A stretch of DNA of 41,384 nt, from positions 1 through 41,384 of the forward strand of contig JBLKOJ010000005.1 of NCBI GenBank assembly GCA_047602745.1, read 5' to 3'. The notes below the pieces were generated by a model. It was not told the origin of the DNA, did not search any database, and was given only the letters and a program-made list of their open reading frames with translations. Below, one piece after another: positions 12,618-34,930 of the stretch. The translations under genes and the position numbers were made by a program. Origin of the DNA: Candidatus Woesearchaeota archaeon. GTDB taxonomy: Archaea > Nanobdellota > Nanobdellia > Woesearchaeales > UBA583. Every line of letters begins with the position of its first letter. Within the stretch, counting starts at the first letter, position 1.

Positions 12618-14753
12618 ATGAGTGAAGTTAAAAAAATTGCACAGATGCATGGAAAATCTGATGTGTATGAATGTAAAATTTTAATTTTTGGAGATATTAA
12701 AACATTTGATTTTTTAAAAATTGAACATGAAGAGCATGGAAGTATCTTAACTCAAGTAAAAAATATAATCAGAGATGACGACAAATTAATTGGAGATGTT
12801 AAAATTATCGGATTTAAACAAAGCGGAGTTTTAAAAAATATCAGAACTCCATTTTCCAATGATGCACACATAGAGATAGCCAAAGATATAGATATTGAAG
12901 AAATTGTAGGACTTTTTAAAGATGAGAGTTCATGTCTTGGAAAGTTAGAACATCATCCAAATTTAAATATTTCTTTAGATTTAAAAAAAGTAATTACAAA
13001 ACATATTGCAGTTTTAGCTAAATCGGGGGCTGGAAAGTCATACACAGTAGGAGTTATTTTAGAAGAGATTATTAGAAAAAAAATTCCAATTCTAATTTTA
13101 GACCCTCATAATGAATATTCAACTTTAAAATTTCCAAATACTGATAAAAAAGATATGAAGAGGCTTGAAGCGTTTAATTTACAACCAAAAGGATTTATGA
13201 ATCAAATAATTCAATTTTCTCCAGATACTAAAATTAATACTCAGTGTCATCCTATAACTCTTGATTTAAATAAAATGAAACCTCAAGATCTCGTAGAATC
13301 TCTTCCTCAAAAAATTACTCCTGCTCAACAATCATTAGTGTATAATATGCTTCAAGCAGCAAATAATAGAGTAGATTTTGATGAATTAATTTTTAACCTA
13401 TCTAATGAGGAGAGTAATTCAAAATGGTCTTTAATTTCACTTATTGAGCAACTCAAACAATTAAAATTGTATTCAACAAATCCAACTCCTTTAAGTTTAA
13501 TTATTAAACAATCTCAAGCAAGTATTGTATCACTTAAAGGGGTTGAACCTTATGTACAAGAAACATTTGTTGCAGGACTCTTAAGAGATTTATTTGAGGC
13601 AAGGAAAAGAGAAGAAATTCCACCTTTTTTTTTAGTTCTTGAAGAAGCACATAATTTTTGTCCCGAAGCGAGTTTAGGTAAATTAAAGTCATCTTCAATT
13701 ATTAGAACATTAGCAGGAGAAGGACGTAAATTTGGAATTGGTTTGTGCGTTATATCTCAAAGACCTGCTAAGATTGATAAAAATGTTATCTCTCAATGTT
13801 CCACTCAAATACTTTTAAAAATTACCAATCCTAATGATTTAAAATCAGTTATTTCAAGCAGTGAGGGAGTAGATTCTACTTCAGAACAAGAAATTCAACG
13901 ATTAAATATTGGAACTTGTTTACTAACAGGTGTACTTGATATACCTCTTAAAGTAAATGTGAGACCTAGAATGTCAAAACATGGAGGAGAAACCGTTGAT
14001 ATTACACTCCCCTACGATTCACCTGAGATTCAGACAATGACTTCAACACATCAAGAATCTTCTCAAACACATCCAAATGAAAATTCTTTTAGTACTCATA
14101 CAAGTCTTCATTCAACTAAATCTCTTAATTCTTCTTCAAAGCCTACTACTTCACAAACACAACCTCATAAAGATTTTATTGAGCATGTTAAAGCTGAGAT
14201 TTCTTTTGAAGATACAAAGGTATTACATAATGGAAAAGAAATTCAAACCGATTTAATTCCAGGAGTACTTGTAAAAATTCAAGATACAAAAGGAGAAGAG
14301 AAACAAATTTTAGTTGAGCTTTTAGAAGGAAATACCATTCAATCAATTATTCCTTTTAAAGGAGTTCCATTACCATTAAGTTTAAATGCACTAACACATT
14401 CTGAAAAAGAACTTCTAGGACAAATTTTAAATGTCAAAGAACAATTCACATCAGCAGAATTGCTGTTAAATTCAAAAATGACGTATACTGAAATTACAAG
14501 AATCTGTGAGAGTTTAGTTCAAAAAAAGATTATTGAAAAAGATAATCAAAGCGGTTTCTCAAAAGCTAACTTACAATCATTTTCAGATGTCAATTTAATA
14601 AGTTTTTTAGGTCAACAACAATTTGAGGAAATTGAATATACAAATGTACATTCTGCAAAATTACAAGTTGAACAAATAACAAAAGTTTTGGAATTGTTTG
14701 GAACTGTAAAAAATGTTAAAGAAATTAAAATAGCATATTATGTTCAGAAATAA
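12618..14753 (+). CDS. HerA-like (DUF87/FtsK-HerA superfamily) ATPase with low-complexity linker and about 190-aa C-terminal extension
   Basis: Walker A AKSGAGKS (aa 134-141). Walker B FFLVLEEAH (aa 337-345). GRKFGIGLCVISQRPAKIDKNVISQCSTQILLKITNPND is typical of HerA. The N-terminal beta-barrel-like region precedes an S/T/Q/H-rich linker (aa about 465-518) and a tail holding a wHTH-like stretch (TYTEITRICESLVQKKIIEKD). Confidence 0.8.
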   Translation: MSEVKKIAQMHGKSDVYECKILIFGDIKTFDFLKIEHEEHGSILTQVKNIIRDDDKLIGDVKIIGFKQSGVLKNIRTPFSNDAHIEIAKDIDIEEIVGLFKDESSCLGKLEHHPNLNISLDLKKVITKHIAVLAKSGAGKSYTVGVILEEIIRKKIPILILDPHNEYSTLKFPNTDKKDMKRLEAFNLQPKGFMNQIIQFSPDTKINTQCHPITLDLNKMKPQDLVESLPQKITPAQQSLVYNMLQAANNRVDFDELIFNLSNEESNSKWSLISLIEQLKQLKLYSTNPTPLSLIIKQSQASIVSLKGVEPYVQETFVAGLLRDLFEARKREEIPPFFLVLEEAHNFCPEASLGKLKSSSIIRTLAGEGRKFGIGLCVISQRPAKIDKNVISQCSTQILLKITNPNDLKSVISSSEGVDSTSEQEIQRLNIGTCLLTGVLDIPLKVNVRPRMSKHGGETVDITLPYDSPEIQTMTSTHQESSQTHPNENSFSTHTSLHSTKSLNSSSKPTTSQTQPHKDFIEHVKAEISFEDTKVLHNGKEIQTDLIPGVLVKIQDTKGEEKQILVELLEGNTIQSIIPFKGVPLPLSLNALTHSEKELLGQILNVKEQFTSAELLLNSKMTYTEITRICESLVQKKIIEKDNQSGFSKANLQSFSDVNLISFLGQQQFEEIEYTNVHSAKLQVEQITKVLELFGTVKNVKEIKIAYYVQK

Positions 14754-14838
14754 TATTTAAAATAAAAAGAGAAATCAACTTTTTTTGATATTTATACTTA
14801 GCAATTATTATTTATCATCTTTTAAGTTTCACTAAAAA

Positions 14839-14846
14839 TTTATAAA
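14839..14846 (+). promoter_or_regulatory. TATA-box-like TTTATAAA 22 nt upstream of the ATG at 14868 (leaderless-type promoter)
   Basis: Read in the sequence. The spacing fits an archaeal TATA-to-TSS distance, so the TSS falls at or next to the start codon. Confidence 0.4.
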
Positions 14847-14867
14847 TCAACTTTAGATAAAAATAAC

Positions 14868-17012
14868 ATGAATTCAATACTTAAATATTTGCTTAAAGGT
14901 CAAATATCTATTTTTGTAATTATTGCAGTTATTATTTTAATAGTTGGAATTTTAGCGTTGATGTTATTTTCGTCTTCTTCAATTTTTCAACAAGAAACGC
15001 CCGGATTTAGAGTTCAAGAGTTCACCCAACAATGTTTACTTCAGCAAGCGGAGTTTGCAATTAGTGAGGTTGCAAAAAAAGGTGGTTGGTATTATAAAAA
15101 AGGAACTCAGAGATTTGCAAGGCCTAACGATTTTAACCTTTTAATCAGTAGAGCTCAAGGTTTTGAACATAATTTTTATGGAAATTTAAAATACTGGGAT
15201 TATTTTGATGAAAACTCAAATGAATTTGAAAATCAAATACCCTCTCTAGATGATTCACAAGACCCTTATTCAATTAAAAATCAAGTAATACGGCTAATGG
15301 AAGAAACTATTAATGATCATTGTCTACAAGATTTTGCTTCTTTTACAGAAGTCTATGAGATTGATAGAGACCTTACAAGATTGCAAATTTCTTCAACTTC
15401 TTTTGATCAAAATAGAATTATTTTTGATTTATATTTACCAGTTCAAGTTAGAACTTTTGAGGGTGATTCTTTTGAGAGTTTAGATAGATTTAGAGTAGAT
15501 ATTGAAAATAAAATTAGAGTCCCTTATTATATTGCTAACGACATTGTATTAGCACAACAGGAGTTAAGTTTTATAGAACAAGCTTATTTAGATTTTATAT
15601 ATATCTACCAAGATGCAGATGATTCAAATCTATTACCACCTTTTTATGATTTTAGATATGGAGTTACTGATTATTCAGTTATTTATGCTGAAGATAAAAA
15701 ACCACTTCTTCAAAGAATTTTTAATACTCATTCAAGAGAAGTTATTGTTACAGATTTAGCCTTAGACCTCGTACAAGAAGAGTTATTACAACAAACTCAA
15801 ACTTTACTTTTTAGAAATATTCAAACTCATCAAAGTCCTTTATTTTCAGAACTAGATGGTACTATGTTAAGAACTCAGCGTTTAAATCGAGAATATTCAA
15901 ATTATGTTGGAAATTTACATTATGAACCTTTTTTTCCAATTTCATTTTCTTTTTCAAATGGAAAAGGAAGTGGACAGGTTTTAACTCATAGCGTATTTAA
16001 TGAAGTTTTATTGATTGTTCCAGTTCAATATACAACATATCAGGCTGGATATGACGTTACACTACCAGTAATTTATGAAATTAGAGATAGTTCTGCAGTT
16101 AGAGATAATTTTGTATTTAATTTACCTTTGGAGGTTAATATTAGAAATAATAATCCTCTAAGAGCACTAATTGAAGCTGATTATAGATTAAATTCTTTAG
16201 AAGTTCAAGATTCATTTACTCCAACGTTTTGTAATGCTAATCACTTTATTTCTCAAGATGTTTCAATTGAAGTTAGTAAATTAAATGAGTTTGATGAAAG
16301 AGAACCTTTGAATAATGTTTCATTTATGTTTTATTGTTCAACTCAGCCTTCTGTTGCTTGTCAAGTTCCAATTTCAGATACAATTGAAAGATTTAATTCA
16401 AATCAATATGTCCTAAATCTCCCAATTAACTGTCCAAATTCTGAACTTGAAATTATTAGAGATGGTTTTATAAATCAAAGAGTTGAAGTGAGTCCATCTC
16501 TTGAAGAAGGAATTGACAAAAGAGTTACAATGATTACTCCAATTACTTTAGATTTCCATTTCTTTGTCGCTGGAAGAACAATTAATGTAGACCAAGAAGC
16601 AATAATTTTATTTGAGCCTAAAAATAATCCTGAATTTATTCAAGTTGTAAATATTAATTCAACTACTGATTTAAATAATCTAAATATAACTTTAGTTCCT
16701 GATGTGTATGAAATTACAGCATTTGTAATTGATAATAGGCAAGACATAATTCCTAAAGAAGAGGGGGAGAGAATATGTATAATTCCTGCTTTAAGAATTG
16801 GTTGTAGAACAACTCCAGACCTCCCTCAAATTGATTTGGAAGGGTGGATTATAAGTAGTTTTGAACTAGATAACTACATCATAACATTTAATGATTTACA
16901 ATTTGCAAGAAGAGTTGTAGCTGATATTCCTGGTGTCACATATCCTACATCTTATGATGACTTTAATCAACAAATGCCTAGATCTGAGAGAAGAAATATT
17001 AGGATTCAGTAA
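14868..17012 (+). CDS. large (714 aa) extracellular protein with class III (type IV pilin-like) signal peptide; function unknown
   Basis: N-terminus MNSILKYLLKG/QISIFVIIAVIILIVGILALMLF has a short basic head, a KG|Q prepilin-peptidase-type site and a hydrophobic helix. The rest has no motif I recognise. Confidence 0.55.
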   Translation: MNSILKYLLKGQISIFVIIAVIILIVGILALMLFSSSSIFQQETPGFRVQEFTQQCLLQQAEFAISEVAKKGGWYYKKGTQRFARPNDFNLLISRAQGFEHNFYGNLKYWDYFDENSNEFENQIPSLDDSQDPYSIKNQVIRLMEETINDHCLQDFASFTEVYEIDRDLTRLQISSTSFDQNRIIFDLYLPVQVRTFEGDSFESLDRFRVDIENKIRVPYYIANDIVLAQQELSFIEQAYLDFIYIYQDADDSNLLPPFYDFRYGVTDYSVIYAEDKKPLLQRIFNTHSREVIVTDLALDLVQEELLQQTQTLLFRNIQTHQSPLFSELDGTMLRTQRLNREYSNYVGNLHYEPFFPISFSFSNGKGSGQVLTHSVFNEVLLIVPVQYTTYQAGYDVTLPVIYEIRDSSAVRDNFVFNLPLEVNIRNNNPLRALIEADYRLNSLEVQDSFTPTFCNANHFISQDVSIEVSKLNEFDEREPLNNVSFMFYCSTQPSVACQVPISDTIERFNSNQYVLNLPINCPNSELEIIRDGFINQRVEVSPSLEEGIDKRVTMITPITLDFHFFVAGRTINVDQEAIILFEPKNNPEFIQVVNINSTTDLNNLNITLVPDVYEITAFVIDNRQDIIPKEEGERICIIPALRIGCRTTPDLPQIDLEGWIISSFELDNYIITFNDLQFARRVVADIPGVTYPTSYDDFNQQMPRSERRNIRIQ

Positions 17013-17079
17013 TTTCTCGTTGACGATATAATTTAATTTAAATACTAAAATTTAAATATCTAGATTTATTAAGTTTAGT

Positions 17080-17559
17080 ATGAAATATTTATCAGGAAAA
17101 GATAAAAAAAATCTTCAAAAATTACTCATTAGTTTAAATCTTAATGTTACAATTGATAGAAAAGATGAAATCATTGAATTTAGAAATATATTATTTAAAA
17201 ACAAAGTTCCTCTTTTTATTTATAATAAAGCGTTTAAACATATTGAAGAGTATAGTGCTATTAAATTAGTACCTCACTTAAAATCTCAACAAGTTAAAAA
17301 TTTAAAAACAATCACAATTGATGTTGGAGCGGTTCCTTTTTTATTAAAAGGAGTTGATATGATGAGACCTGGCATAACTTCAATACAGCAGGGAATTGAA
17401 AGATTTGAATTAGTTAGAATTGTAGATGAAGTTAAAGGTTTAACTATAGCTGTGGGAGTTAGTTTATTTGATTCAAATACCTTAAAATCTATGCAAACTG
17501 GAAAGTCTATAAAAATATTGCATTATTTTAAAGATTCTTTTTATAATGTTTCTTTATAA
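17080..17559 (+). CDS. PUA-domain RNA-binding protein (archaeal Tma20/MCT-1-like)
   Basis: C-terminal PUA pattern GAVPFLLKGVDMMRPGITSI...VRIVDEVKGLTIAVGVSLFDS. Confidence 0.7.
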   Translation: MKYLSGKDKKNLQKLLISLNLNVTIDRKDEIIEFRNILFKNKVPLFIYNKAFKHIEEYSAIKLVPHLKSQQVKNLKTITIDVGAVPFLLKGVDMMRPGITSIQQGIERFELVRIVDEVKGLTIAVGVSLFDSNTLKSMQTGKSIKILHYFKDSFYNVSL

Positions 17560-17669
17560 TTATAAATTTATTCAGAAGATTTTGATATCTATTTTAACTA
17601 TACAACTAAGTTTATTAATTCAAGATTATTATTAATAAATAAGATATTAATTTTAAGAGGTTATATTAA

Positions 17670-18005
17670 ATGAAATTTAAAAGAAAATGTTGTGAATGCG
17701 GTGCTTTAAGTTCAATTCTTATTGATGGAAAATGTGAAAAGTGTCACAGAATAGAATTTCCACCAATTAAAGAATTTAAGCCAATTGTATTGCATTTTTG
17801 TAATGTAACTAAAAAAATTGCTTATAATAATATTTATTACAAACAAGAAGTTTTATTTAATAAGTTGCCAGAGATTGTTGCTAGTAAAATTGAACTTAAT
17901 GAGGGTTATGAGCTAAGGCAAATTGAAATTGATGACATTGAATTAGACGGCCATAAAGTTCGATTTCAAATTAATGTTGAATGTGAATTTGAAAGTTATA
18001 ATTAA
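17670..18005 (+). CDS. small zinc-ribbon protein (CxxC-x11-CxxC), possibly NMD3-N-terminal-like
   Basis: CCECG...DGKCEKCH at the N-terminus. 111 aa. No further recognisable motif. Confidence 0.4.
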   Translation: MKFKRKCCECGALSSILIDGKCEKCHRIEFPPIKEFKPIVLHFCNVTKKIAYNNIYYKQEVLFNKLPEIVASKIELNEGYELRQIEIDDIELDGHKVRFQINVECEFESYN

Positions 18006-18025: not shown

Positions 18026-20500
18026 TTAATTTTTTTTATTTTTTAGTTTAAGTTCGTTTCTAATTAAATTTTTAATATATTTATCTATATTTGAATGTTG
18101 AGATTTTATATAATAAATTATACAGTTAGGATGTTTGAATATCGAAATTGAATTATTTAAACGTTTAGGAAGATAGCCATTTCTAGAATTGTTATAAACT
18201 ATTTCTCCAATAATCTTTAAATTTTTCAAAAGAAATTTAGTTTGAATTTTTGTTTTTTCTTTAGGGAATTCATTTTTCTTAATTGAATTTATTAAAGTTA
18301 ACTCATTGATAAGATTTTTTTGAATTTGAATTACATCTTTTTCAATTTCTTTTTTAATTTTTTTATATCTTGACGATAATTTTTCTAACTGAAATATTGT
18401 TTTATATTTAATTTCTTCAGGAAGAGTTGAGATGAAATTTTGATTAATTGTACCATCTTTTTGAATATATTCCAATAATTTATTAGAGTTTACTCCCAGT
18501 GAAATTTCAACTAATGAATTATATGAGTGAGATTTCACTTTAACTCTAAGTCCATTTTTAAATCTAATTACTACTCCTTCAAATGTATTGTTCCAAATTT
18601 TTTGTTGAGCTACAATTTCTTCAATTGAGGTGAAATTAGATATTTTTTTAATTATTTCAAAATTAGTTTTCACTGCTTCTTCTTCTAATTGAGAGTATGT
18701 TAATTCTTCTCCGCTTTGAGTATTTATACAGCTTAAAAGGATTAATTTTTGTTCATTTTTATAGTCAATTATAACTTTGCAGTTTGGATGAATAATTTCA
18801 CAAATATATGTAAAATTAGGATTCATTTTAGAAGTATTTATTTTAGATTTTAAAATATTTTCTCCAATCATTGCTTGCATGGAGTTAAGTTCTCCTCTAG
18901 TTGAAATATTCCACCTATTGTTATGATAGAAAATTATTCCTAAAACTCCATCTATTTTTTCAAATACTTCAAAAGATTCTTGTAATGGCAGTTTTTTTAG
19001 TTGTGTTGATTCATTTTCATTTATATTGAAAAATTTTCCAAATGGTCTTGCTACAATTTGATTTGTCAACCTATCAAAAATAATTCCTCTTGCTTGCATT
19101 GTATATGTATTCCAATATTCTTCATATATTGTTTTTTGAGTATAATTAAATAAAATAAGGTTATTTCTTTGAGAAGATTTTACATAACCCTGGCGTTCTA
19201 AAATTTTAAAATGATTAATTAAATTTTCTACAAGATTTGAACTTAAAAATTCATCTCTTTGATAATATGTTTTTTTAGCGGGGGTTGAAATAATTTCAAT
19301 TTTTTCAATTTCACAATTTAGAGTTTGAACAATTGCACCTCTAAGTTCTCCTCCAAACACACAGTAACCATCAAGTCCATAAAGATTTTTAGTGATTTGG
19401 GTATTTTGAACTTCTTGATGTCCAAAAAATAATCTTGGTTTTTCAGAAGTATAGTATTCATACCACTTTTTATCTCCAATAGTATTAAATGAATGAGTTA
19501 TAGGATTAAATGTTCTTGCAAAAAGAAGGTATTCTTTAGGTTGCCTAAATAAAGATTTTTCAGGATGAACTCCTGCATGAAGAACATAGTTTTTTTTAGC
19601 AATTTGAATCATAAAAGGTAGGGAGTCTAAATTTTCAAGTAATTTTTGATTATAAGTGAAATCGTATTTAGGAGATTTTTTGTCTAAATTGCAGTCTTTA
19701 ATGGTAACTTCTAAACCATGCGATATAATAATGTTATTTCCTCGTAAATATTTTTGTATTTTAAGTTCATGATTGCCTCTTACACTATAACAATGAGGAG
19801 AATATTTTGAATTGAAAAAAAATTCTAATACTTCTTTAGATTTAGGTCCTTTATCAACTAAATCTCCAACACTTACAATTGCTGTATTTTCAAGAGAATA
19901 TCCTTTAGATTCAAACTTATTTAGTAGTTCTTGAAATTCATCAAAACAGCCATGAATATCTCCAATAACTAAAAATTGAGAGTATTTATCACTAATATCT
20001 AAACAATAGGGATCAAAATCATGAATATTTATTAGAGAATGACATTCATCTATAAGTGGGGGTTCATACTCTTGTAGTGTTCTATATAGAACTTCTGAAG
20101 CTTCTTGATATGTTGTAGGATTAAATGTTAGATGTTTAGATTTTTCTTTGACTCTTTTTAAAATATTGTTGACACACTTTTTAAATGTAATATTTAAGTT
20201 AATCACTATTACATGATATTTACTATTAAAACCAATTGTTGTATAGTTTTCTCTTTGTTTTTGAGTATGATTAGTTCTATCTATTATAATATTTTCATTT
20301 TTATCGATTAATTGATTAAAAAGATCTAAATGTTTTTTTCTTCCTAAATTATCTTGGGAAATGATGGTATATTTTTGATTTGATATTTTTATCAACTGAG
20401 TTGCAAAAGTTGATTTGCCACAGCCTTGTAAACCTACTAGAATGATTAAAATGGGTTTTTTAATTGATTGTAAAAACATATTTAATTCCGAGATTTCCAT
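18026..20500 (-). CDS. trifunctional polynucleotide kinase / metallophosphatase / RNA-ligase-like protein (Pnkp-like RNA repair enzyme)
   Basis: P-loop GLQGCGKST (aa 23-31). Metallophosphoesterase motifs GDIHG (180-184), GDLVDKG (212-218), GNHE (242-245), HAG (308-310), GH (360-361). Ligase motifs KIDG (515-518), FTYICEII, EGVVI, RVKVKS, preceded by RGIIFD..ARPFGKFFNINE. Confidence 0.75.
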   Translation of the reverse strand: MEISELNMFLQSIKKPILIILVGLQGCGKSTFATQLIKISNQKYTIISQDNLGRKKHLDLFNQLIDKNENIIIDRTNHTQKQRENYTTIGFNSKYHVIVINLNITFKKCVNNILKRVKEKSKHLTFNPTTYQEASEVLYRTLQEYEPPLIDECHSLINIHDFDPYCLDISDKYSQFLVIGDIHGCFDEFQELLNKFESKGYSLENTAIVSVGDLVDKGPKSKEVLEFFFNSKYSPHCYSVRGNHELKIQKYLRGNNIIISHGLEVTIKDCNLDKKSPKYDFTYNQKLLENLDSLPFMIQIAKKNYVLHAGVHPEKSLFRQPKEYLLFARTFNPITHSFNTIGDKKWYEYYTSEKPRLFFGHQEVQNTQITKNLYGLDGYCVFGGELRGAIVQTLNCEIEKIEIISTPAKKTYYQRDEFLSSNLVENLINHFKILERQGYVKSSQRNNLILFNYTQKTIYEEYWNTYTMQARGIIFDRLTNQIVARPFGKFFNINENESTQLKKLPLQESFEVFEKIDGVLGIIFYHNNRWNISTRGELNSMQAMIGENILKSKINTSKMNPNFTYICEIIHPNCKVIIDYKNEQKLILLSCINTQSGEELTYSQLEEEAVKTNFEIIKKISNFTSIEEIVAQQKIWNNTFEGVVIRFKNGLRVKVKSHSYNSLVEISLGVNSNKLLEYIQKDGTINQNFISTLPEEIKYKTIFQLEKLSSRYKKIKKEIEKDVIQIQKNLINELTLINSIKKNEFPKEKTKIQTKFLLKNLKIIGEIVYNNSRNGYLPKRLNNSISIFKHPNCIIYYIKSQHSNIDKYIKNLIRNELKLKNKKN

Positions 20501-20968: not shown

Positions 20969-23900
20969 ATGAATTATTTAAAAAGTTTAATTATAATGAT
21001 AATTATTTTATTATTATTATCATATAGTTATTCTCAATTTGCTTCTACTCAAACAGTATGTTGTTACCAGAGTCAAGATAGCGACCAAAGTGGTGTCATA
21101 AGAACTGCATTTCATTCTAATTGTCAAAGTAGTGGTGGAATTAGTTTAGGAATTCCAAGTTCAGAACATTCTCTAGAAACAGGAAATGTGCAAGGAATAC
21201 CTACTAATTGTGGACAATTAGTGGTGGATAATGGAAGAGAGTGTGTTCTTAGCACAGGTGAATTAAACTCCAACAGATTTTTTTTTAATTTTAACGGTCA
21301 AAATTATCCTTCTGTAAATAGCTGTGTAGAATTTAGAGAATGTTCAACACAAGGATGTAGTTGGCAAGGAATAACTCCCTCAACTCAACAACCCACTATT
21401 GGGGATGCAAGACCTAGTATAGGCGGAGATTTAGATTTCGATATGGTTGATGGAGATTTTATAGAAGAGGGTGGTATTAATTTAGGATTGAGTCCTTTTT
21501 CCACAAGTTCTATGAGCAGTTGTTATGAATCTATAGGGCCTTTTAGAGGATCTTTAATGTCTCGAACCATGTGTGAGAGAATAGGCACTGATTGTGTATA
21601 TGATCCATTAAGAGTTGGGATTTTAACTCAAAAAGTTGGAGATTATGATGAAACAGAAATTTTTTCAGATTTTAATAGAGATACGATGTGTGTTTCAAAA
21701 ACAAGTTCTATTAGGATGTGTGAGGGAATTAATTCAAGAGTTGTCTGTGAGAATTATCAGTCTAGACTAAATCCAAATGAGGGTTCTCTCATGCAAATTT
21801 ATGGATGCGAATGGAGGGAATTAAATCAATTGCAGGGAACTTGTATTACAAAAGATTTGTATTTTGAAAATTTAGGGGATGTAAAGAGTAAGTCTATTAA
21901 TGTTACAAGTGCTATTAGACGAGAAAATTTTGTTAAAAATCCTGTGTTTCAAGTAAGAAGTGGTTCAACTCTAGATTTTTGGAATGGTTCAGGTTATCAA
22001 ATTAGGTCTACTCAAAATTTTAATTATTTCTTAGGTGAAACTAGTGTGTTTTTCCCACAAGAAGCTGGTTTTATTGAACAACAAATCTCAGCAATACCCG
22101 TAAATTCTAATTTAGAATTGAAAGTATTTGTATCGGGTTCTGTTGTGAATGTATTTTTTGACGAAGAGTTTATACCTAATTTAGAATATGAAGAGGGAGA
22201 TTTTAACCCTTATTTAGTTTCAAGGGGAGAGTTTAATTCAGATATAAAAGTATTAAGATTTGAAGTGCCTAATTCTGTAGAAACTGCCAATAGAATTTTA
22301 AGAATTGAACCTACTGGAAGAACTAAGATTTTTGGAGTGAGTTTAGCACTTATGTCTGGAGATTTGAGTTCAACACTTCAAAATCCTGTTCAAGATATAA
22401 ATCACTTCAGTTCTTTTCCTCCAAATTCATTTAATTGTAACATATGTTCACAAGGAATTTTTGCGGGCCTTTGTAGTGAACAAACAATGAGTCAATTTGG
22501 AAATTGTGAGTTAATTTCTCAATCTTTTGATACTCCTTATAGAACTGGACTTGAGAGCTCCATTAATCCTTACACCACTTCAAGGGGGATGGCCAATATA
22601 TTTTTAGAGGAGGATATGGTGTTTTGCGGCTTGTATACTTCAAGAAGTAGATGTGAAGGAGACAACAAATTAAATTCTCAAATATCTAAGTATCACTTAA
22701 ACCAAAATGGACTTTGTAAATGGATATCTAATCCCTCCTACCCCAACGGAGGGACTTGTGTTAAAGATTCAACAGGAGATGGTAATCCCGATACATTTAA
22801 TAATGGTGGGCGTTTATCATTTATTTCGTCTTCAAGTGGAGCATCAATTATTGACAATTATAATTTTCAAACTGAACATACGTCATTAAATGATTTCCAG
22901 TTAAGTTGTGATTCTTATCCACCATCAATATACATAGAATTATATAAATCTTACATAGGAGATGACGCAGAGTTGAGAACCGATAGAACTTCACTTCCTT
23001 TAGTTTCAGAAAAACCTGGAGTTATAAGATATGCAGTTGTAAGAATTGAAAATCAAATCTCTCCTGCATGTAATGTGTTTGAAAATTTTAATTCAACAGT
23101 CAGATTAATATTAGAATTAGATGGACAGAGAATCTTGACTCCTTTAGCAACTTCTCTGTTTCCAGAATATAATGGTGCTGAGTTTTTTCAAACAGTTTAC
23201 ACAAACGAAGAGTTTAGAAGCAAATTTGGTGCTATAGATTTAAATACTCTTGACAATTTTATTTCAAGAGGTACAATTAGGGCAATTGATAGTTCAGGAA
23301 ATGTTCAAAAAAACAGAGTAAGTTTAAGAGGAGGTAAAGGGATTGAAGATTTTATGTTTGAATTAAAGACTGAACCTCAAACATATGAATTATATTCTTT
23401 CTCTAAGTTGTATTTAGATAACATTCAAATGCCTATTGAAGTGAGTGATTTACGTGAAACGTGTTCAGTAATTCTTGCAGATTTGGACAATGATATGATA
23501 ATTGGTCAATTTGATAACATATCTCTTTTAGATCTTAGAGATGAAGGATTTGAAATAGGAGCTAAGTATAGTGCCTACGCTAATCAAGAGAGAAGATCCG
23601 ATTTTTTTAATATTTCTTACCAAGTTTCTTGTCAAAATATTTTTGACCAACATCATTCAGTTGCTCAAAATAGGATTTTTTCAACTAGAGATGAGTTAAT
23701 TATTTTATCTTTTGGTTCTGAGGAATTACGAAATTCTGATAATGTTCCTTTTTTTGATTTAAATTCTTATGAATTAAACTTAGAGTTTAGGGCTTTAGAA
23801 GGAGTTTCATGTTCTCTTATGACATTGGTAGGAGACTCCTCTGTTGAAGCATCAGTTGATGCAATAATTAAAGAACCTGTAGAACTTAGTTCTCAAATAT

Positions 23901-26896
23901 CGCCTAATTATAGTACCCATCCTCTGTACTTCAATAAAAATTTAAATTTAGAACCATTTTTACAAAGAGGTGATTCTAGTTATGATGGAACATACAGACT
24001 TACTTTAGTATGTAATTTGCTGAACGATAGACCTTTTGAAAAAGAATTATTTTTTGAATTAAATAGTTATATCCCCGATATAAGTGAGTTTATAATTACG
24101 CACATTGATGATAAAAAGTGGGTTGAAATAAATAATCAAATTTATATTGATGCATTAGGAGAAAATCTACTTTCTTCTGACAACAGCCCTATAAATGAAA
24201 AAATCAATAACTATATTAGAAACAACTTAAAATTAAATTCTCAGGATAGTCAAATTGACTTTGATACTATTAGAGAGATTAAATTGTGTGATATTGAGAT
24301 TCCTAAAAATACTTTAAGAATAAATCAAAATTTATTTTCTTTAACAGAGTCTGCGAATTGCAATGTTTTTTATGATTCTGAACTCTCTTCGATAATATTG
24401 GAAACTCGTTTAGAAATTCAGACTAACTGGGGAACTCTTAATAGTAAAGTAATTCGAACAAATTTAGAGACTAAAGAACCAAATATTAATATAAGAACAA
24501 GAGATGGAACTTCATTTGGAAGATTAATTGAAAATAATTTGTATTATAAAGGAGATAATCCTGAAATTTTAATTGATTTAGGCTTATCTGAATTTAGAGA
24601 GTTTAGTTGTGATATCACACCTATTGTAAATGGATTTTATCTAGATTCTTCCTCATTTGAATCCTCAAGTTCTTCTATGAGATTTACTCTTGCACAAATT
24701 CTCACCTCTGATGCTATGAATAATCTAGATAATATTGATATTCAAATGGAATTAGAATGTATTGAGCATATATTTAATAAAAAATTAAATCTTGAAGTCT
24801 CTTTGATTAAAGATGAGATTATACCAGAAATTGAGTCCATTGAATTTATAGGTTTAGGGGATAATTGGGTTTATCCTTCCCATGGAACGCCTCAAATAAA
24901 TAGTGATATTCAAATAGATTTTTCAAGAACAAATAATTTTGTAAGTTGTCAAGTTTTACCAGTTTTTGATTCAAATCCAATTGCTCAACATGTAAATATT
25001 AAGTCAGTTAAAGGTAGAGATACAAGTTCTTTGGTTTTAGAAGATGTATTGACTTTAGTAAGAAGAAATAATGATTTATCTCCTTTAGTCTCATTATCAA
25101 ATTCAAACGTTATAAATAATGTAGATTTTTATGTAAGTGTAAGATGTGAAAATGGGGCAGGAGGAGTTGGCAAGAGAAATTTCTCACAGTATTCATTAAA
25201 CTTGTTTGATTTTGGAAGTGTTAATGTTAGAGGCAAATTAAATAATGATAAGAGGTTAAATCTTGAAATTGATACGTTAGCAAATTTAGGTTCTTCAATT
25301 ATTACTATTAGAGATAGAAATTCAGATTCCATCCTCTTTAACGGGCCTTTGAGTTCTTTGAATTCTGAAATCTCAACTACTGGTTCAATTAACAGATATT
25401 TTATAAGGGGGATTGATATTGAAGCTCAAGATTTAGAAGATTCTCCCTCATATCCGTTAAATATTGAGTTTATAATTGGAGAACAATCACTAAGCACAGA
25501 TTTTAATATTTTAGTAGATAATACAAATCCTGAAGTTTTTATTAATTTAAACTCTAATGATGATTCAGTAGTATTTGAAAATTTTATTTCTGGAGAAATT
25601 ATAATTAGAGAGTCCCCCGAGTTTTCAAAAGGAATTTCTGAATTAAGTATTCAATTTAGAAAAGGCTCTGAGGTAATTTCAGAAATTATAGAGATGAATT
25701 ATAATGATCTATCTTACTCTATAGCACTTAATGAAGTTGAAGGTTTTCAAGAGTTAGAGGTAGGTTCATATTCAATTAGAGTTTCTGCAAGAGATTATTT
25801 TGGAAATCTAAATATATCGACTAAAGAGTTTGAAGTTAGTGATGAAATATTTATAAGTTTACTCTCAAGTATAAATGTGGGACTTTATGATTTTGATCCA
25901 AGTACTTGGTATACAATTAGTGAGTTTCCTGTTTTATCATTTGAATCGACTCGAGATCTTCAAAGTTGTTCCTTAATGCCTGGCTCATCAAGAGGCTATA
26001 TAGGAGGAGTTATTCCATTTGAAAATTTAGGTTCAAATGTTTTTGAATTAAATACGAGTGATCATAGGGAACTTTTTGAAATAATTGATGGTAAAAAACT
26101 TACACTAATTTCATGTCAAAGGTCAGATAGAGATGAAGAGTTTAGAGTTGGAGTTAATTTGTATAAAATGAATATTTTACCAGATTATGTTTTATCATTT
26201 GATTGGGGAGTAAATCAAATTATTCCACCAAATAGAAATTCAAGAACCGTAAATTTTTCAGTTATTCAAAAATCTGATTTTAGAGATGTGAGTTGTAAAG
26301 TCAATGTTAGAGGACAATCGATAGATAAAAATCTTGACTTAGTTTCTTCAACAGGCATTGGAAATTTTAGAGGTTCTGTTGACCTACCTGCTGGAGATTA
26401 TATGTTCTTTTTAGAGTGTATGAATCCTGTTGAGCAAAATGGAATTGTAAAATCTTATAATGTAAATATTGCTCAAGAAGCATTTAGAATTGATATTATA
26501 TCAGTTGAACACACAGGACTAGGATTTAAAAATGATAAGTTAAATTCAAATGTTGTTGAGATTCCAAGTCAAATTTCAACTCAACCGAATAAAGATTTAA
26601 AAGTTAGATTTACAAATAATAATCAAGCTGAAATGATTTGTACTATTGATACTACTAAGTCTGGAGTTGTAAATTTCCTCATTTCATTATTTAGAAATAC
26701 TAGAACTGCAACTAATGTTATATTGCAGGGTGTTTACGAGGGCATTGTTGAAATTGATGAAACTACAAATGAAATCAGAATTGAATGTAGAAATGAAGAT
26801 GGAAGATTTTCAAGTAGAACGTTTAGATTTCCTATTGAATATATAGACTCTTCCCAATACTCGATTGGACAAGTAAATGTTGAGGGTGAGAGATAA
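20969..26896 (+). CDS. giant (1975 aa) secreted/surface protein with repeated Cys modules and a possible CBM-like jelly-roll; function unknown
   Basis: Uninterrupted 5.9-kb ORF in an AT-rich genome. N-terminal signal/anchor LIIMIIILLLLSYSYSQ. Two similar Cys modules at aa 251-296 and 553-600. No C-terminal TM. Confidence 0.8.
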   Translation: MNYLKSLIIMIIILLLLSYSYSQFASTQTVCCYQSQDSDQSGVIRTAFHSNCQSSGGISLGIPSSEHSLETGNVQGIPTNCGQLVVDNGRECVLSTGELNSNRFFFNFNGQNYPSVNSCVEFRECSTQGCSWQGITPSTQQPTIGDARPSIGGDLDFDMVDGDFIEEGGINLGLSPFSTSSMSSCYESIGPFRGSLMSRTMCERIGTDCVYDPLRVGILTQKVGDYDETEIFSDFNRDTMCVSKTSSIRMCEGINSRVVCENYQSRLNPNEGSLMQIYGCEWRELNQLQGTCITKDLYFENLGDVKSKSINVTSAIRRENFVKNPVFQVRSGSTLDFWNGSGYQIRSTQNFNYFLGETSVFFPQEAGFIEQQISAIPVNSNLELKVFVSGSVVNVFFDEEFIPNLEYEEGDFNPYLVSRGEFNSDIKVLRFEVPNSVETANRILRIEPTGRTKIFGVSLALMSGDLSSTLQNPVQDINHFSSFPPNSFNCNICSQGIFAGLCSEQTMSQFGNCELISQSFDTPYRTGLESSINPYTTSRGMANIFLEEDMVFCGLYTSRSRCEGDNKLNSQISKYHLNQNGLCKWISNPSYPNGGTCVKDSTGDGNPDTFNNGGRLSFISSSSGASIIDNYNFQTEHTSLNDFQLSCDSYPPSIYIELYKSYIGDDAELRTDRTSLPLVSEKPGVIRYAVVRIENQISPACNVFENFNSTVRLILELDGQRILTPLATSLFPEYNGAEFFQTVYTNEEFRSKFGAIDLNTLDNFISRGTIRAIDSSGNVQKNRVSLRGGKGIEDFMFELKTEPQTYELYSFSKLYLDNIQMPIEVSDLRETCSVILADLDNDMIIGQFDNISLLDLRDEGFEIGAKYSAYANQERRSDFFNISYQVSCQNIFDQHHSVAQNRIFSTRDELIILSFGSEELRNSDNVPFFDLNSYELNLEFRALEGVSCSLMTLVGDSSVEASVDAIIKEPVELSSQISPNYSTHPLYFNKNLNLEPFLQRGDSSYDGTYRLTLVCNLLNDRPFEKELFFELNSYIPDISEFIITHIDDKKWVEINNQIYIDALGENLLSSDNSPINEKINNYIRNNLKLNSQDSQIDFDTIREIKLCDIEIPKNTLRINQNLFSLTESANCNVFYDSELSSIILETRLEIQTNWGTLNSKVIRTNLETKEPNINIRTRDGTSFGRLIENNLYYKGDNPEILIDLGLSEFREFSCDITPIVNGFYLDSSSFESSSSSMRFTLAQILTSDAMNNLDNIDIQMELECIEHIFNKKLNLEVSLIKDEIIPEIESIEFIGLGDNWVYPSHGTPQINSDIQIDFSRTNNFVSCQVLPVFDSNPIAQHVNIKSVKGRDTSSLVLEDVLTLVRRNNDLSPLVSLSNSNVINNVDFYVSVRCENGAGGVGKRNFSQYSLNLFDFGSVNVRGKLNNDKRLNLEIDTLANLGSSIITIRDRNSDSILFNGPLSSLNSEISTTGSINRYFIRGIDIEAQDLEDSPSYPLNIEFIIGEQSLSTDFNILVDNTNPEVFINLNSNDDSVVFENFISGEIIIRESPEFSKGISELSIQFRKGSEVISEIIEMNYNDLSYSIALNEVEGFQELEVGSYSIRVSARDYFGNLNISTKEFEVSDEIFISLLSSINVGLYDFDPSTWYTISEFPVLSFESTRDLQSCSLMPGSSRGYIGGVIPFENLGSNVFELNTSDHRELFEIIDGKKLTLISCQRSDRDEEFRVGVNLYKMNILPDYVLSFDWGVNQIIPPNRNSRTVNFSVIQKSDFRDVSCKVNVRGQSIDKNLDLVSSTGIGNFRGSVDLPAGDYMFFLECMNPVEQNGIVKSYNVNIAQEAFRIDIISVEHTGLGFKNDKLNSNVVEIPSQISTQPNKDLKVRFTNNNQAEMICTIDTTKSGVVNFLISLFRNTRTATNVILQGVYEGIVEIDETTNEIRIECRNEDGRFSSRTFRFPIEYIDSSQYSIGQVNVEGER

Positions 26897-32222: not shown

Positions 32223-32531
32223 ATGGAAAACCTCAATAAAGAGATAATTTTGAAAACTTTACATGAACATAGAGACTTAATTAGAAAATTTGGAGTTAAG
32301 AAATTAATTTTATTCGGTTCATATGCAAGAGATGAACAGAAAGAAACATCTGATATCGATTTTTTAGTTGAATTTGGAGAAGGAAAATACAACATTGATA
32401 ATCATTTAGGTTTATTATATTTATTAGAAAACTTATTTAACAAAAAAATAGATTTAGTAAAACCTCATTTAGTAAGAAGTGAATTAAAAGATGATATTTT
32501 AGGTGGAATCCAACATGTTGCGGAAATATAA
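32223..32531 (+). CDS. mntA: MNT-type nucleotidyltransferase antitoxin (type VII TA)
   Basis: Minimal nucleotidyltransferase motif LFGSYARDE...SDIDFLVEF. Overlaps the downstream HEPN gene. Confidence 0.85.
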   Translation: MENLNKEIILKTLHEHRDLIRKFGVKKLILFGSYARDEQKETSDIDFLVEFGEGKYNIDNHLGLLYLLENLFNKKIDLVKPHLVRSELKDDILGGIQHVAEI

Positions 32532-32883
32532 TCTATTTTTAAAGGATATATTAGAGAATATTAATGATATAAAGGAGTTCATTAAAGATTATACATTTGA
32601 AGAGTTCATAGAAGATAAAAAGACAATTAATGCTGTTACAAGGAGTTTTGAAATAATCGGAGAAGCTGTTGCAAAACTTCCAGATAATTTGAAAAGTAAA
32701 TACAATTATGTTCCATGGAAAGATATTAAAAATTTTAGGAATATAATAATTCATCAATATTGGAGTGTGGATTATGAAGCTGAATGGAGTATTATTAAAA
32801 CAAAATTGGATATACTAGAAAAACAGATTAAAGAAATAATTGAAAAGGAAAAAATAGAAGAAACAGAAGTAAAATATAAGTAA
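32503..32883 (+). CDS. hepT: HEPN (DUF86) RNase toxin
   Basis: Rx4H motif FRNIIIHQY. Canonical pairing with an upstream MNT. The true start may be the Met at 32515. Confidence 0.85.
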   Translation: MESNMLRKYNLFLKDILENINDIKEFIKDYTFEEFIEDKKTINAVTRSFEIIGEAVAKLPDNLKSKYNYVPWKDIKNFRNIIIHQYWSVDYEAEWSIIKTKLDILEKQIKEIIEKEKIEETEVKYK

Positions 32884-33308: not shown

Positions 33309-34166
33309 TTATTCAATCTGTTTTAAATACTTTTTAGCAATGTAATCTACAAATTGATAATTCTCTAGTTTGCTATTTGCTCTTTCAAGTGCATCATAGT
33401 ATTGTTTTCTTTTCTTGTAATCAATATCTAACATTGGATAATCATTTTTATGTAATATATAATTCATTAATAATCTTGAAATTCTTCCATTTCCATCACT
33501 AAAGGGATGAATTGTAACAAATTTTAGATGACTCAGAGCAGCTAATCTTACAGGATGAATATTGTTTTTATTGTTATCATACCATTTAAAAAATTCATTT
33601 AATTCTTCTTCAACCTTTGAATAATGGCAAAAAACTGTTGAAGCACTCAAAACTTTGACATTATGATTTCGAATTTTACCTGAGATATCAGGATAAGTCT
33701 CTTGAAATAATTTTTTATGCCAGTTTAAAATACTTTTCAAACTAATTTCTTTTTCTTGTAATATCTCAAAAAAGACTTTGTAATGAGTTTTTGAAAGCTT
33801 AATATCATTTAAATCTTTATTTGGGTTTATATTTTCTTCAATTAAATGAACTGTATCTTTGAAATTTAGACTAGAACCTTCAATTGCTTGTGAATTGTAT
33901 GTAAATTTAATAGCAAATTGGGATAAATACTTATTTTTATAACTCTGAGGCATATTCTCAATCTCTTTTTTATTTTGTTTTCGCTTTTTTTCAATTGCAT
34001 TCTCAAATCTTTTTCTAAATACCTCCTCTTCAAACTCTTCTTGCATCATTGTAATATTTTTTGGAACTTCTTTTCCTACATATTTTTCAAAAGTTTTAGT
34101 ACTAGAATTTTCTCTAAAAGAATACTGAAAGTAATAATATTGATTCTTTTCAATAATTTTAACCAT
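33309..34166 (-). CDS. Fic/DOC family protein, class II (intramolecular inhibitory helix)
   Basis: Fic motif HPFSDGNGRISR. N-terminal SQAIEG matches the [ST]xxxE[GN] inhibitory motif. Confidence 0.9.
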   Translation of the reverse strand: MVKIIEKNQYYYFQYSFRENSSTKTFEKYVGKEVPKNITMMQEEFEEEVFRKRFENAIEKKRKQNKKEIENMPQSYKNKYLSQFAIKFTYNSQAIEGSSLNFKDTVHLIEENINPNKDLNDIKLSKTHYKVFFEILQEKEISLKSILNWHKKLFQETYPDISGKIRNHNVKVLSASTVFCHYSKVEEELNEFFKWYDNNKNNIHPVRLAALSHLKFVTIHPFSDGNGRISRLLMNYILHKNDYPMLDIDYKKRKQYYDALERANSKLENYQFVDYIAKKYLKQIE

Positions 34167-34370: not shown

Positions 34371-34616
34371 ATGGTTCAAACAACAATTAATTTAGGAGAA
34401 ATTGAAAATGGATTTGTTGAAATGTTTAAAGCTCAAAGAAATTTGAGTAATAAAAATGAAGCAATAAACAAAATTATTGAAGAATTTAAAGCACTCAAAA
34501 AAGAAGAGTTTCAAGAGAAAATGTTATCTTTTGAGTGTTCATTATTATCTGAAAAAGCTCTTGCAGAAGACTGGTTATCAAAAGAAGATGAGGAGGCTTT
34601 TGCTTATTTACAATGA
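34371..34616 (+). CDS. putative antitoxin of the downstream PemK/MazF-like toxin
   Basis: 81 aa. Its stop overlaps the toxin start (ATGA). The acidic C-terminus LSEKALAEDWLSKEDEEAFAYL resembles archaeal antitoxin tails. TATA-like TTTATAAT lies at 34335-34342. Confidence 0.5.
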   Translation: MVQTTINLGEIENGFVEMFKAQRNLSNKNEAINKIIEEFKALKKEEFQEKMLSFECSLLSEKALAEDWLSKEDEEAFAYLQ

Positions 34617-34930
34617 GCAGAGATATTTACTTAGTTGAATTTCCATTTAGTAATATTTCATCTACTAAAAAAAGACCTGCATTATTAGTTAGTAATTTAA
34701 AAGGTGAAAATGATATATTTATTCAAATATCAACTAAAGAAAAATTAACTAAAGACTATCAAATTAATTTATTAAAAACAGATTGTGAGGGAGAAATTAA
34801 ATTTGATTCATATATCAATTGTGATATGATATTTACATTACATAAAGATTTAATAATTAGAAAAATAGGTTCAATATCAGATAAAAAATCAAAAGAAGTT
34901 GAAAATATATTACAATCTTTATTTAAGTAA
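34613..34930 (+). CDS. PemK/MazF-family endoribonuclease toxin
   Basis: N-terminal DIYLVEFPFSN...KKRPALLVSN pattern and a size (105 aa) typical of MazF/PemK. Confidence 0.75.
   Translation: MSRDIYLVEFPFSNISSTKKRPALLVSNLKGENDIFIQISTKEKLTKDYQINLLKTDCEGEIKFDSYINCDMIFTLHKDLIIRKIGSISDKKSKEVENILQSLFK

Follow-up and report, generated by a model that had tools for sequence, protein, structure and literature searches.

RNA ligation in archaea of the DPANN group is normally attributed to RtcB and Rnl3. The locus studied here raises the question of what a gene combining a kinase, a metallophosphoesterase and an Rnl1-type ligase in a single chain is doing among archaeal housekeeping genes, and where it came from. 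This fusion gene (18026..20500, minus strand) is carried by a stretch of 41,384 nucleotides, referred to below as the window, from a Candidatus Woesearchaeota archaeon (GCA_047602745.1, contig JBLKOJ010000005.1, positions 1 to 41,384 of the forward strand). On balance, it seems fairly probable that its product is a self-contained RNA repair enzyme of the heal-and-seal kind, the substrate being probably transfer RNA (tRNA), which would rescue RNAs cut by metal-independent ribonucleases, and that the gene is an accessory one derived from a virus.

Domain organization of the fusion protein

An 824-residue open reading frame (ORF) with kinase, phosphatase and ligase modules in this order had been described in an initial annotation. 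The ORF was borne out from its ATG to its TAA stop codon (18026-18028), on the minus strand, which that annotation had not given, and all the motifs it quoted were located at the residues named: GLQGCGKST (residue 23), SQD (48) and IIDRTN (72) in the kinase; GDIHG (180), GDLVDKG (212), GNHE (242) and HAG (308) in the phosphoesterase; and RGIIFD (471), ARPFGKFFNINE (484), KIDG (515), FTYICEII (563), EGVVI (641) and RVKVKS (652) in the ligase. Three Pfam domains (AAA_33, Metallophos and RNA_lig_T4_1) exceed their curated cut-offs. The AlphaFold model of the whole protein shows a mean predicted local distance difference test (pLDDT) score of 89.1, and its best matches in the PDB, as identified with Foldseek, are T4 Rnl1 (E 9e-17), the putative diadenosine tetraphosphatase 2qjc and the phosphatase of Clostridium thermocellum Pnkp (CthPnkp; 2e-14), along with the Trl1 ligase and the polynucleotide kinases of Mucorales and mammals. 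The profile and structure searches returned AAA_33, Metallophos and the Rnl1 family, with the likeness to CthPnkp in the phosphatase, just as had been predicted, and the three catalytic modules were confirmed in the order proposed.

Across 36 full-length relatives showing 22-62% identity to this protein (the query), 30 positions are invariant, the catalytic residues of all three modules among them. Judging from the alignment, the conservation of the three modules is far beyond chance, and the fact that their catalytic residues never vary suggests that all three activities are under selection. The domains, the fold and the intact catalytic residues support the role in heal-and-seal RNA repair put forward in the initial annotation, and the protein is very likely a trifunctional enzyme of this kind.

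The predicted polynucleotide 5'-kinase domain (residues 15-165; 20006..20458, minus strand) was delimited from AAA_33, the kinase parts of TIGR04075 and TIGR01663, and the structures 9d8a and 9drz. AAA_33 covers residues 18-119 (35.6 bits, cut-off 27). The P-loop extends from G23 to T31 and includes Lys29 (codon 20414-20416); Asp50 (codon 20351-20353) is the candidate general base, and Asp74-Arg75 and Arg116 are further candidate residues, the catalytic roles being assigned by analogy. Lys29, Asp50, Asp74 and Arg116 are all invariant in the 36-sequence alignment. The domain matches the Mucorales RNA 5'-OH kinases 9d8a and 9drz both in sequence (E 1e-13) and in fold (1e-9), and the mammalian PNKP kinase 1yj5 in fold (E 4e-9). 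Its best sequence match among solved structures is 9d8a, a fungal tRNA-splicing kinase (PMC11571804).

The second module (residues 170-415; 19256..19993, minus strand) is a predicted binuclear metallophosphoesterase expected to heal 2',3'-phosphate ends. Metallophos was detected on residues 176-362 (67.9 bits, cut-off 21.5), and the module resembles the CthPnkp phosphatase 4j6o, which is of the lambda-phosphatase type, in sequence (E 7e-19) as well as in fold (2e-14). Based on the alignment with 4j6o and the data available on CthPnkp (PMC3675462), the metal ligands are D181, H183, D213, N243, H308, H361 and D377, and the phosphate contacts are H244 and K217. The residues D181, H183, D213, D216, N243, H244, H308 and H361 are invariant in the 36-sequence alignment, and D377 is present in the query.

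Residues 2-13 of the ORF have no counterpart in 35 aligned relatives, which begin 3-5 residues ahead of the first beta-strand. Met8, which lies in the stretch upstream of the relatives' starts (residues 1-12; 20465-20500, minus strand), may be an alternative, perhaps the true, start codon. The guanine-cytosine (GC) content of the gene, about 0.22-0.27, is inside the range of the window.

Affiliation of the ligase and absence of Hen1

The predicted Rnl1-type adenylyltransferase domain (residues 430-660; 18521..19213, minus strand) was identified with the full PF09511 model, a profile comparison with T4 Rnl1 and Foldseek. RNA_lig_T4_1 (PF09511) matches residues 469-660 over positions 1-227 of its 227 (88.5 bits, cut-off 28.3). 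A profile built from residues 430-824 of 13 family members matched T4 Rnl1 with an E value of 3.6e-32 and reached Rnl1 residue 294, the RG, KFFN, KxDG, E, EG and KxK elements being aligned; the fungal Trl1 ligase came next (E 1.6e-8). In the query, these elements correspond to R471, K489-F-F-N, motif I (K515-I-D-G), E568, motif IV (E641-G) and motif V (K654-x-K656), and Lys515 (codon 18956-18958) is the predicted nucleophile. The residues R471, K489, F491, K515, G518, E568, E641, G642, K654 and K656 are invariant in the 36-sequence alignment; by alignment, they match Arg54, Lys75, Phe77, Lys99, Gly102, Glu159, Glu227, Gly228, Lys240 and Lys242, which we take to be the essential residues of T4 Rnl1. 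The model of residues 430-824 also gave T4 Rnl1 as the first Foldseek match (E 1.2e-17, template modelling (TM) score 0.53-0.58), with Trl1 at 8e-11 and Rnl3 at about 3e-10, while the DNA ligases reached only about 1e-4, as against 1e-17 with T4 Rnl1. By these profile and fold comparisons, the ligase is a member of the T4 Rnl1 family (PF09511), distinct from the Pnkp ligase family PF16542.

This assignment bears on the view, expressed in the initial annotation, that the order of the modules is the hallmark of bacterial Pnkp. The likeness holds for the N-terminal half of the protein and for the order of the modules, but not for the ligase. The NCBIfam equivalog model TIGR04075 (851 positions) aligns only residues 13-420 of the query with positions 5-425, with a score of 121.9 bits against a cut-off of 750; no match to PF16542 was found in the fusion protein, and the alignment with the classical Pnkp proteins, whose ligase is of the PF16542 type, takes in only 45-49% of the query. 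A ligase of another family and an equivalog score far below the cut-off rule out membership of bacterial Pnkp. The two enzymes share a homologous kinase, a lambda-phosphatase-type 2',3'-phosphoesterase with all its metal ligands, and a ligase in third place; they differ in that bacterial Pnkp has a PF16542 ligase, Arg237 in the phosphoesterase and a Hen1 partner, whereas the query has a PF09511 ligase, Lys217 at the corresponding position and no Hen1 that could be found.

No Hen1-like protein was detected among the window ORFs of at least 80 residues that were scanned, short ORFs overlapping longer ones and a 1975-residue ORF lying outside the scan. Hen1 was likewise absent from 15 related contexts (nine archaeal or phage-like metagenomic contexts, phage Twort and five bacterial chromosomal contexts). 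In the bacterial chromosomes, the fusion gene stands alone amid unrelated genes, such as hydrogenase genes or ilvN/ilvC. The Pnkp-type ligase depends on Hen1 for its activation, whereas a ligase of the Rnl1 type acts alone. The absence of the partner, which the initial annotation had reported, was therefore confirmed and extended to the relatives, but it is not an anomaly: it is to be expected, since the ligase is of the Rnl1 type and not a PF16542 ligase. Since Hen1 is the protein that installs a 2'-O-methyl mark at the repair junction (PMC6097658), an enzyme working without it would leave no such mark.

Distribution and evolution of the family

The three-module architecture, which had been presented as unusual, turned out to be common. 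A word-indexed search yielded 796 homologues, and most of the best 120 have the same three Pfam domains and a length of 720-810 residues. An exhaustive search among 1.84 billion representatives gave 682 proteins at E <= 1e-30, about 35 of which are full-length proteins of the type called clade A below. Many of the 682 are ligase-only (340-390 residues) or kinase-phosphatase-only (350-400 residues) proteins, so the modules also exist as separate genes. In named genomes, the full fusion was found in Gemmatales, Myxococcota, Lachnospiraceae, Lachnoclostridium and Gemella, and it is apparently fragmented in a Flavobacteriaceae metagenome-assembled genome (MAG). Among the phages in GenBank, 18 records reach a query coverage of 80% or more, including those of Staphylococcus epidermidis phages and ORF008 of Staphylococcus phage Twort (YP_238673.1; 754 residues, annotated as 'RNA ligase'), and SPbeta-like Bacillus phages and Fusobacterium phages show a coverage of 78-79%. 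The PHROGs family phrog_8238 ('RNA ligase', 737 positions) aligns residues 57-726 of the query with positions 63-725 (E 1.4e-51). Among the IMG/VR matches listed, dozens show 21-32% identity and are mostly full-length and clade-B-like, none of them being close to the query; no close archaeal orthologue occurs among the matches listed for the GTDB species representatives. NCBI already holds one archaeal member, MFP4402479.1, 'MAG: RNA ligase [Candidatus Nanoarchaeia archaeon]'. With phage copies deposited since 2005 (Twort ORF008), a PHROGs family, many bacterial copies and this archaeal entry, the claim of an unusual architecture does not stand: as far as these homologues indicate, the fusion is common overall, and the query is the archaeal branch of an existing, apparently uncharacterised family.

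Neighbour-joining trees (100 bootstraps) were built for each half of the protein separately. A clade A of archaeal, phage-like-contig and Planctomycete sequences was supported at 97% and 100% in the two trees, and clade B consists of Firmicutes and Twort sequences. The agreement between the two halves suggests that the fusion predates the split between clades A and B and has evolved as a unit. Twort ORF008 and phrog_8238 show the same order of AAA_33, Metallophos and RNA_lig_T4_1 as the query and stand alone without Hen1; the phrog_8238-type group also includes SPbeta-like Bacillus phages, Fusobacterium phages and chromosomal genes of Lachnospiraceae and Gemella. The Twort-type proteins of clade B are about 22% identical to the query, do not have the long C-terminal domain of clade A, and carry an Arg at the Arg237 site and a KxNG motif I, whereas the query, a member of the sister clade A, has a Lys at this site and a KxDG motif I.

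The 11 archaeal-type sequences group together at 78% in the kinase-phosphatase tree; in the ligase tree, a core of eight groups at 98% and the two sequences P0009 and P0010 float. Within clade A, the branching order has little support (20-49%), and it does not allow a donor to be named. Of the nearest non-archaeal relatives, five had their context checked, and all five are located on phage-like contigs, which show portal, terminase or faint capsid-protein matches, long series of small ORFs pointing the same way, genes of NAD salvage and, in two cases, the gene of RlaP. These placements make a virus the likely donor of the archaeal gene. The direct transfer from a bacterium to an archaeon, which the initial annotation had envisaged, is not what they point to, the archaeal sequences falling in clade A next to relatives on phage-like contigs.

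The Lys217 substitution and the C-terminal domain

Lys217, in the GDLVDKG motif (codon 19850-19852, minus strand), occupies the position of Arg237 of CthPnkp (GDLVDRG). A Lys is present at this position in 11 of the 11 members of the archaeal clade and in four other proteins of clade A. The remaining 101 members of the Rnl1-type family have an Arg, as do all 17 classical Pnkp or other non-KFFN sequences carrying the motif. In CthPnkp, Arg237 touches the scissile phosphate and is essential for the phosphomonoesterase step but dispensable for the opening of the cyclic phosphate; the R237K mutation increases the kcat of the cyclic phosphodiesterase three-fold and does not restore the nucleotide monoesterase (PMC2190708, PMC3675462). 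The equivalent of His244 is a mark of cyclic-nucleotide phosphodiesterases (PMC2190708). The CthPnkp mutant H189D, which has kept the diesterase only, yields a 2'-PO4 end, and the repair is thus redirected to the yeast ligase, which seals it (PMC1920235).

The ligase is followed by an all-helical C-terminal domain (residues 661-824; 18029..18520, minus strand), delimited on both AlphaFold models and the clade-A alignment. The initial annotation had described about 125 residues rich in K, I and N as an extra tail. The composition was confirmed (K 20%, I 16% and N 13% in residues 700-824), but the region is hardly extra: it aligns in 25 of 25 clade-A relatives, with conserved Y660, G683, P694-E-E and Y712, and the lineage-specific part amounts to about 33 residues, in the form of K/N-rich insertions absent from most relatives (residues 733-740, 750-761 and 772-784; nucleotides 18149-18304), which were modelled with low confidence. 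From the alignment, the tail is the family's own C-terminal domain plus a lineage-specific low-complexity expansion. The C-terminal domain of T4 Rnl1 is all-helical and confers tRNA specificity. The similarity between the two stops at Rnl1 residue 294, presumably about 40 residues into the Rnl1 domain, and no sequence similarity is demonstrable past this point; the whole-chain structural alignments have root-mean-square deviations of 10-18 A.

Genomic context

The named relatives of the ribosomal protein L3 of the window (67-72% identity) are annotated as 'Nanoarchaeota archaeon' or 'Candidatus Woesearchaeota archaeon'. The window carries the ribosomal protein genes L3-L4-L23-L2-S19-L22-S3 along with genes for SUI1, a HerA ATPase, a PUA protein, an NMD3-like protein, deoxyhypusine synthase, SBDS, a TFIIS-type zinc ribbon and CDC48. 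The archaeal housekeeping neighbours mentioned in the initial annotation were thus recovered, and these surroundings, together with the L3 relatives, indicate that the host is a DPANN archaeon. No tRNA genes or Rfam families were detected across the whole window.

The fusion gene adjoins a block on the plus strand (12618-18005) encoding a HerA (DUF87) ATPase, a protein of about 700 residues, the PUA-domain protein (17080-17559) and a short, 111-residue NMD3-like zinc-ribbon protein (17670-18005), the last of these genes being convergent with the fusion gene across a gap of 20 nucleotides. The protein of about 700 residues has an N-terminal membrane segment and no Pfam match. In three genomes, the whole block lies next to a fusion gene whose product shares no more than 48-50% identity with the query (about 50% on the syntenic contig L084 and 48% on L086), and the opposite flank differs in each of these relatives. 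Synteny maintained at about 50% protein identity suggests that the fusion gene has been stably inherited. At the same time, the archaeal-type clade comprises 11 clusters at 90% identity and two representatives at 50%, as compared with more than 100 clusters at at least 59% identity for the L3 of the lineage. This patchy distribution and the synteny together suggest an accessory gene stably kept in one Woesearchaeota/Nanoarchaeota sub-lineage.

On a related 1.09-Mb contig (L083, 5706-7251 and 8001-10271; L3 78% identical to that of the window), the copy of the fusion is only 39% identical and lies at a non-syntenic locus, just downstream of genes for an rve integrase, a DUF7387 protein and a HicA toxin, which suggests that the gene has moved or was acquired a second time.

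On two phage-like contigs, the gene of RlaP (PF10127, 'RNA ligase-associated Pol-beta') is located one or two genes after the fusion gene (L088, 9226-10791; L091, 9473-10207), and a Macro-domain gene is also present on one of them. The RlaP family is named after its association with RNA repair ligases (PMC12776372). In Emticicia soli (L010), an RlaP gene follows a stand-alone Rnl1-like ligase gene. In Priestia iocasae (L025, 7926-9983), a stand-alone Rnl1-like ligase of 353 residues is immediately followed by a 328-residue fusion of a kinase and an HD phosphohydrolase, and this pair is a split heal-and-seal system with a different 3'-healing module. In these split bacterial versions, the ligase and its C-terminal domain are 34-40% identical to the ligase half of the query; they differ from it in being encoded by separate genes near Pnk-HD, RlaP or other repair genes, and the HD phosphoesterase may do the healing instead of a metallophosphoesterase.

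Divergent from the fusion gene, across an AT-rich spacer of 469 nucleotides, is the 1975-residue ORF (20969-26896, plus strand), which has an N-terminal hydrophobic segment and no Pfam match on record, and looks like the giant surface proteins typical of DPANN archaea. An overlapping pair of MNT (32223-32531) and HepT (32503-32883) genes is followed by the gene of a Fic/DOC protein (33309-34166, minus strand), which gave SoFic and PDC-S04 matches in PADLOC, and by an 81-residue ORF (34371-34616) overlapping a MazF/PemK gene (34613-34930). A 128-residue HIT-family protein is encoded at 35309-35695 (minus strand), 15 kb from the fusion gene. Some HIT enzymes strip the 5'-adenylate from aborted ligation intermediates; no evidence ties this protein to the ligase. 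A 580-residue protein (35802-37544, plus strand) combines an N-terminal ribulose-phosphate 3-epimerase domain with a weak C-terminal ROK (sugar kinase/repressor) match, a fusion which is unusual for a reduced genome.

Comparison with other repair systems

The chemistry expected here is that of the T4 pair Pnkp and Rnl1: the 5' end is phosphorylated, the 2',3'-phosphate is removed and a ligase of the Rnl1 family seals the break, T4 Rnl1 being the closest solved ligase by sequence and fold. The T4 system differs in consisting of two proteins, whereas the query is a single chain with a metallophosphoesterase. The fungal and plant Trl1 likewise unites healing and sealing in one trifunctional polypeptide, its ligase being of the Rnl1 family and its RNA kinase of the P-loop type, and the structures of its ligase match the query by fold; the kinases of the split enzymes of Mucorales are the best solved matches to the query kinase. 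The order of the Trl1 modules is ligase, kinase and cyclic phosphodiesterase, the latter being of the 2H type, as against kinase, phosphoesterase and ligase in the query, where Metallophos is the 3'-healing module. The 3'-phosphatase of T4 is a DxDxT acylphosphatase (PMC3592404). In the case of Trl1, the 3'-healing leaves a 2'-PO4, which the ligase demands via a His-Arg-Arg triad, and Tpt1 is required afterwards (PMC1920235, PMC11404444). Two of the three residues of this triad lie in a C-terminal domain described as unique to fungal ligases (PMC11404444).

Proposed function and alternatives

We infer the activities, the substrate and the biological role from the domain identities, the catalytic residues, the fold, the distribution, the synteny and the absence of Hen1. 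The P-loop kinase would move a phosphate from a nucleoside triphosphate (NTP) onto the 5'-OH end of the broken RNA, and the metallophosphoesterase would open the 2',3'-cyclic phosphate, probably also removing the phosphate and giving a 3'-OH. Lys515 would then take AMP from ATP and hand it to the new 5'-phosphate, and attack by the 3'-OH would restore the phosphodiester. The helical C-terminal domain might serve to hold the substrate RNA, as the T4 Rnl1 domain does, the likeliest substrate being a tRNA in its anticodon region. The damage might be due to toxin-antitoxin RNases, competitor toxins or virus-triggered nucleases cutting tRNAs or other RNAs of translation, and the gene looks as though it was taken from a virus and then kept in the Woesearchaeota/Nanoarchaeota sub-lineage. 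Healing by CthPnkp and sealing by T4 Rnl1 have been found to splice endonuclease-cut tRNA in vitro (PMC1920235), and the combination of modules is therefore chemically compatible. The prevalence in phages and the proximity of RlaP and Macro-domain genes fit the classical Rnl1 role of undoing tRNA cleavage, and the repair of ribotoxin-type damage, by analogy with that role, seems somewhat likelier than housekeeping splicing.

Several points weigh against this explanation. The anti-ribotoxin role is drawn by analogy. The initial annotation had linked the enzyme to the HEPN and MazF-type RNases of the window; these genes are indeed present, but the functional link is mere co-residence within 41 kb, since the MNT/HepT pair (32223-32883) and MazF are 12-14 kb from the fusion gene and, in the syntenic relatives, neither HepT nor MazF turns up in the flanking 8 kb. 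The window and the 15 related contexts yielded no conserved partner, whether nuclease, toxin or other, apart from the RlaP and Macro-domain genes of the two phage-like contigs, and no PADLOC model matches the fusion protein. It is uncertain whether the enzymes of the archaeal clade take the phosphate off completely, because Lys217 replaces the Arg required for the 2'/3'-phosphomonoesterase of CthPnkp, where R237K did not restore this activity. As regards the sequence, the homology with the Rnl1 C-terminal domain is firm only over the first 40 residues or so. Lastly, no published characterisation of the fusion family, and hence no assay of any member, was found in the literature, although an earlier computational mention of the architecture is possible; nothing relevant was found on RNA repair or RtcB in DPANN archaea.

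The alternative that survives best is a housekeeping tRNA-splicing or RNA-circularising ligase, which would replace RtcB or back it up in joining the exon halves that the splicing endonuclease produces, a task of which the T4 enzymes are capable in yeast. It is consistent with the chromosomal site beside translation-related genes (NMD3-like, PUA and ribosomal proteins), kept in relatives about 50% identical, with the splicing of endonuclease-cut pre-tRNA by CthPnkp-type healing and Rnl1 sealing in vitro (PMC1920235), and with the fungal tRNA-splicing kinase 9d8a being the best solved sequence match of the kinase domain (PMC11571804). A housekeeping enzyme would hardly be so patchy, however (11 clusters at 90% identity, as against more than 100 for the L3 of the lineage), and the 39% identical copy of the related genome (L3 78%), located elsewhere by an rve integrase and a HicA gene, fits an accessory gene. 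We regard this alternative as improbable.

The substitution at Lys217 suggests another possibility, a yeast-like end chemistry in the archaeal clade: the phosphoesterase would go no further than a 3'-OH,2'-PO4 end, which would be sealed by the Rnl1-family ligase, and Tpt1/KptA would clean the 2'-phosphate junction. The properties of Arg237, essential for the monoesterase and dispensable for the diesterase, and the three-fold higher kcat of R237K (PMC2190708, PMC3675462) are in line with this scheme, as are the sealing by the yeast ligase of the 2'-PO4 end made by H189D (PMC1920235), the restriction of Lys to the 11 archaeal-clade members and only four others of the Rnl1-type fusion family, with Arg in all the classical Pnkp sampled, and the wide occurrence of Tpt1 homologues in archaea and bacteria, bacteria such as E. 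coli having no known pathway that yields 2'-PO4 RNA (PMC6097658). The ligase, however, is far nearer to T4 Rnl1, a ligase that joins 2'-OH ends (E 3.6e-32), than to Trl1 (1.6e-8), the triad enforcing the 2'-PO4 lies partly in the C-terminal domain described as fungal-only (PMC11404444), no Tpt1 gene was present in any flank examined, and Lys may still support the monoesterase in the context of the archaeal active site. All in all, this chemistry is unlikely.

Less likely still is that the gene is the cargo of a provirus or mobile element, which it would serve in counter-defence against the anticodon nucleases of the host. The fusion is common in phages, the nearest non-archaeal relatives with a checked context (five of five) are on phage-like contigs, and the copy P0009 has an rve integrase and a HicA gene as neighbours. 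In the window, on the other hand, no capsid, portal, terminase or integrase gene was found among the scanned ORFs, housekeeping genes flank the fusion gene, its GC content (about 0.22-0.27) falls inside the window's range, and the NMD3-like/PUA/HerA junction is kept in three genomes with fusion proteins only 48-50% identical. A provirus in the window was rejected as the principal explanation, given the absence of virus hallmark genes among these ORFs and the conserved synteny. Finally, an enzyme that processes DNA ends and seals nicks, in the manner of mammalian PNKP combined with a ligase, is very unlikely: the fold of the kinase resembles that of mammalian PNKP (1yj5, E 4e-9), the phosphorylation of DNA ends in vitro is known from related polynucleotide kinases (PMC11571804) and a HerA ATPase gene is nearby, but the ligase is of the Rnl1 family, DNA ligases matching it far less well by fold (about 1e-4 vs 1e-17), and the phosphoesterase is nearest to the 2',3'-cyclic-phosphate-specific module of CthPnkp, with the equivalent of His244 (PMC2190708).

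Significance

To our knowledge, three designs of heal-and-seal repair with a 5'-phosphate ligase have been characterised: T4 Pnkp and Rnl1, the bacterial Pnkp/Hen1 (and Pnkp1-Rnl-Hen1), and the eukaryal Trl1 and Tpt1. The family of the query would be a fourth arrangement, in which Pnkp-type healing is fused to Rnl1-type sealing independently of Hen1; phages and the Firmicutes of the gut have it in abundance, and it reaches the DPANN archaea. The natural change from Arg to Lys offers a way to test the proposal, made in the literature, that the repair pathway can be switched by a single residue of the active site. If the yeast-like chemistry were true, there would be archaea with a yeast/plant-type ligation making 2'-phosphate junctions, a natural substrate for the prokaryotic Tpt1/KptA. 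If the protein is merely an ordinary virus-derived accessory repair enzyme, the outcome is that the annotation has been put right and that a further case of gene capture from a virus by its host is on record. A characterised member of the family would give a compact single-chain repairer of 2',3'-cyclic-phosphate/5'-OH breaks, useful for RNA work, and would show whether archaea with small genomes protect their tRNA pool from ribotoxins.

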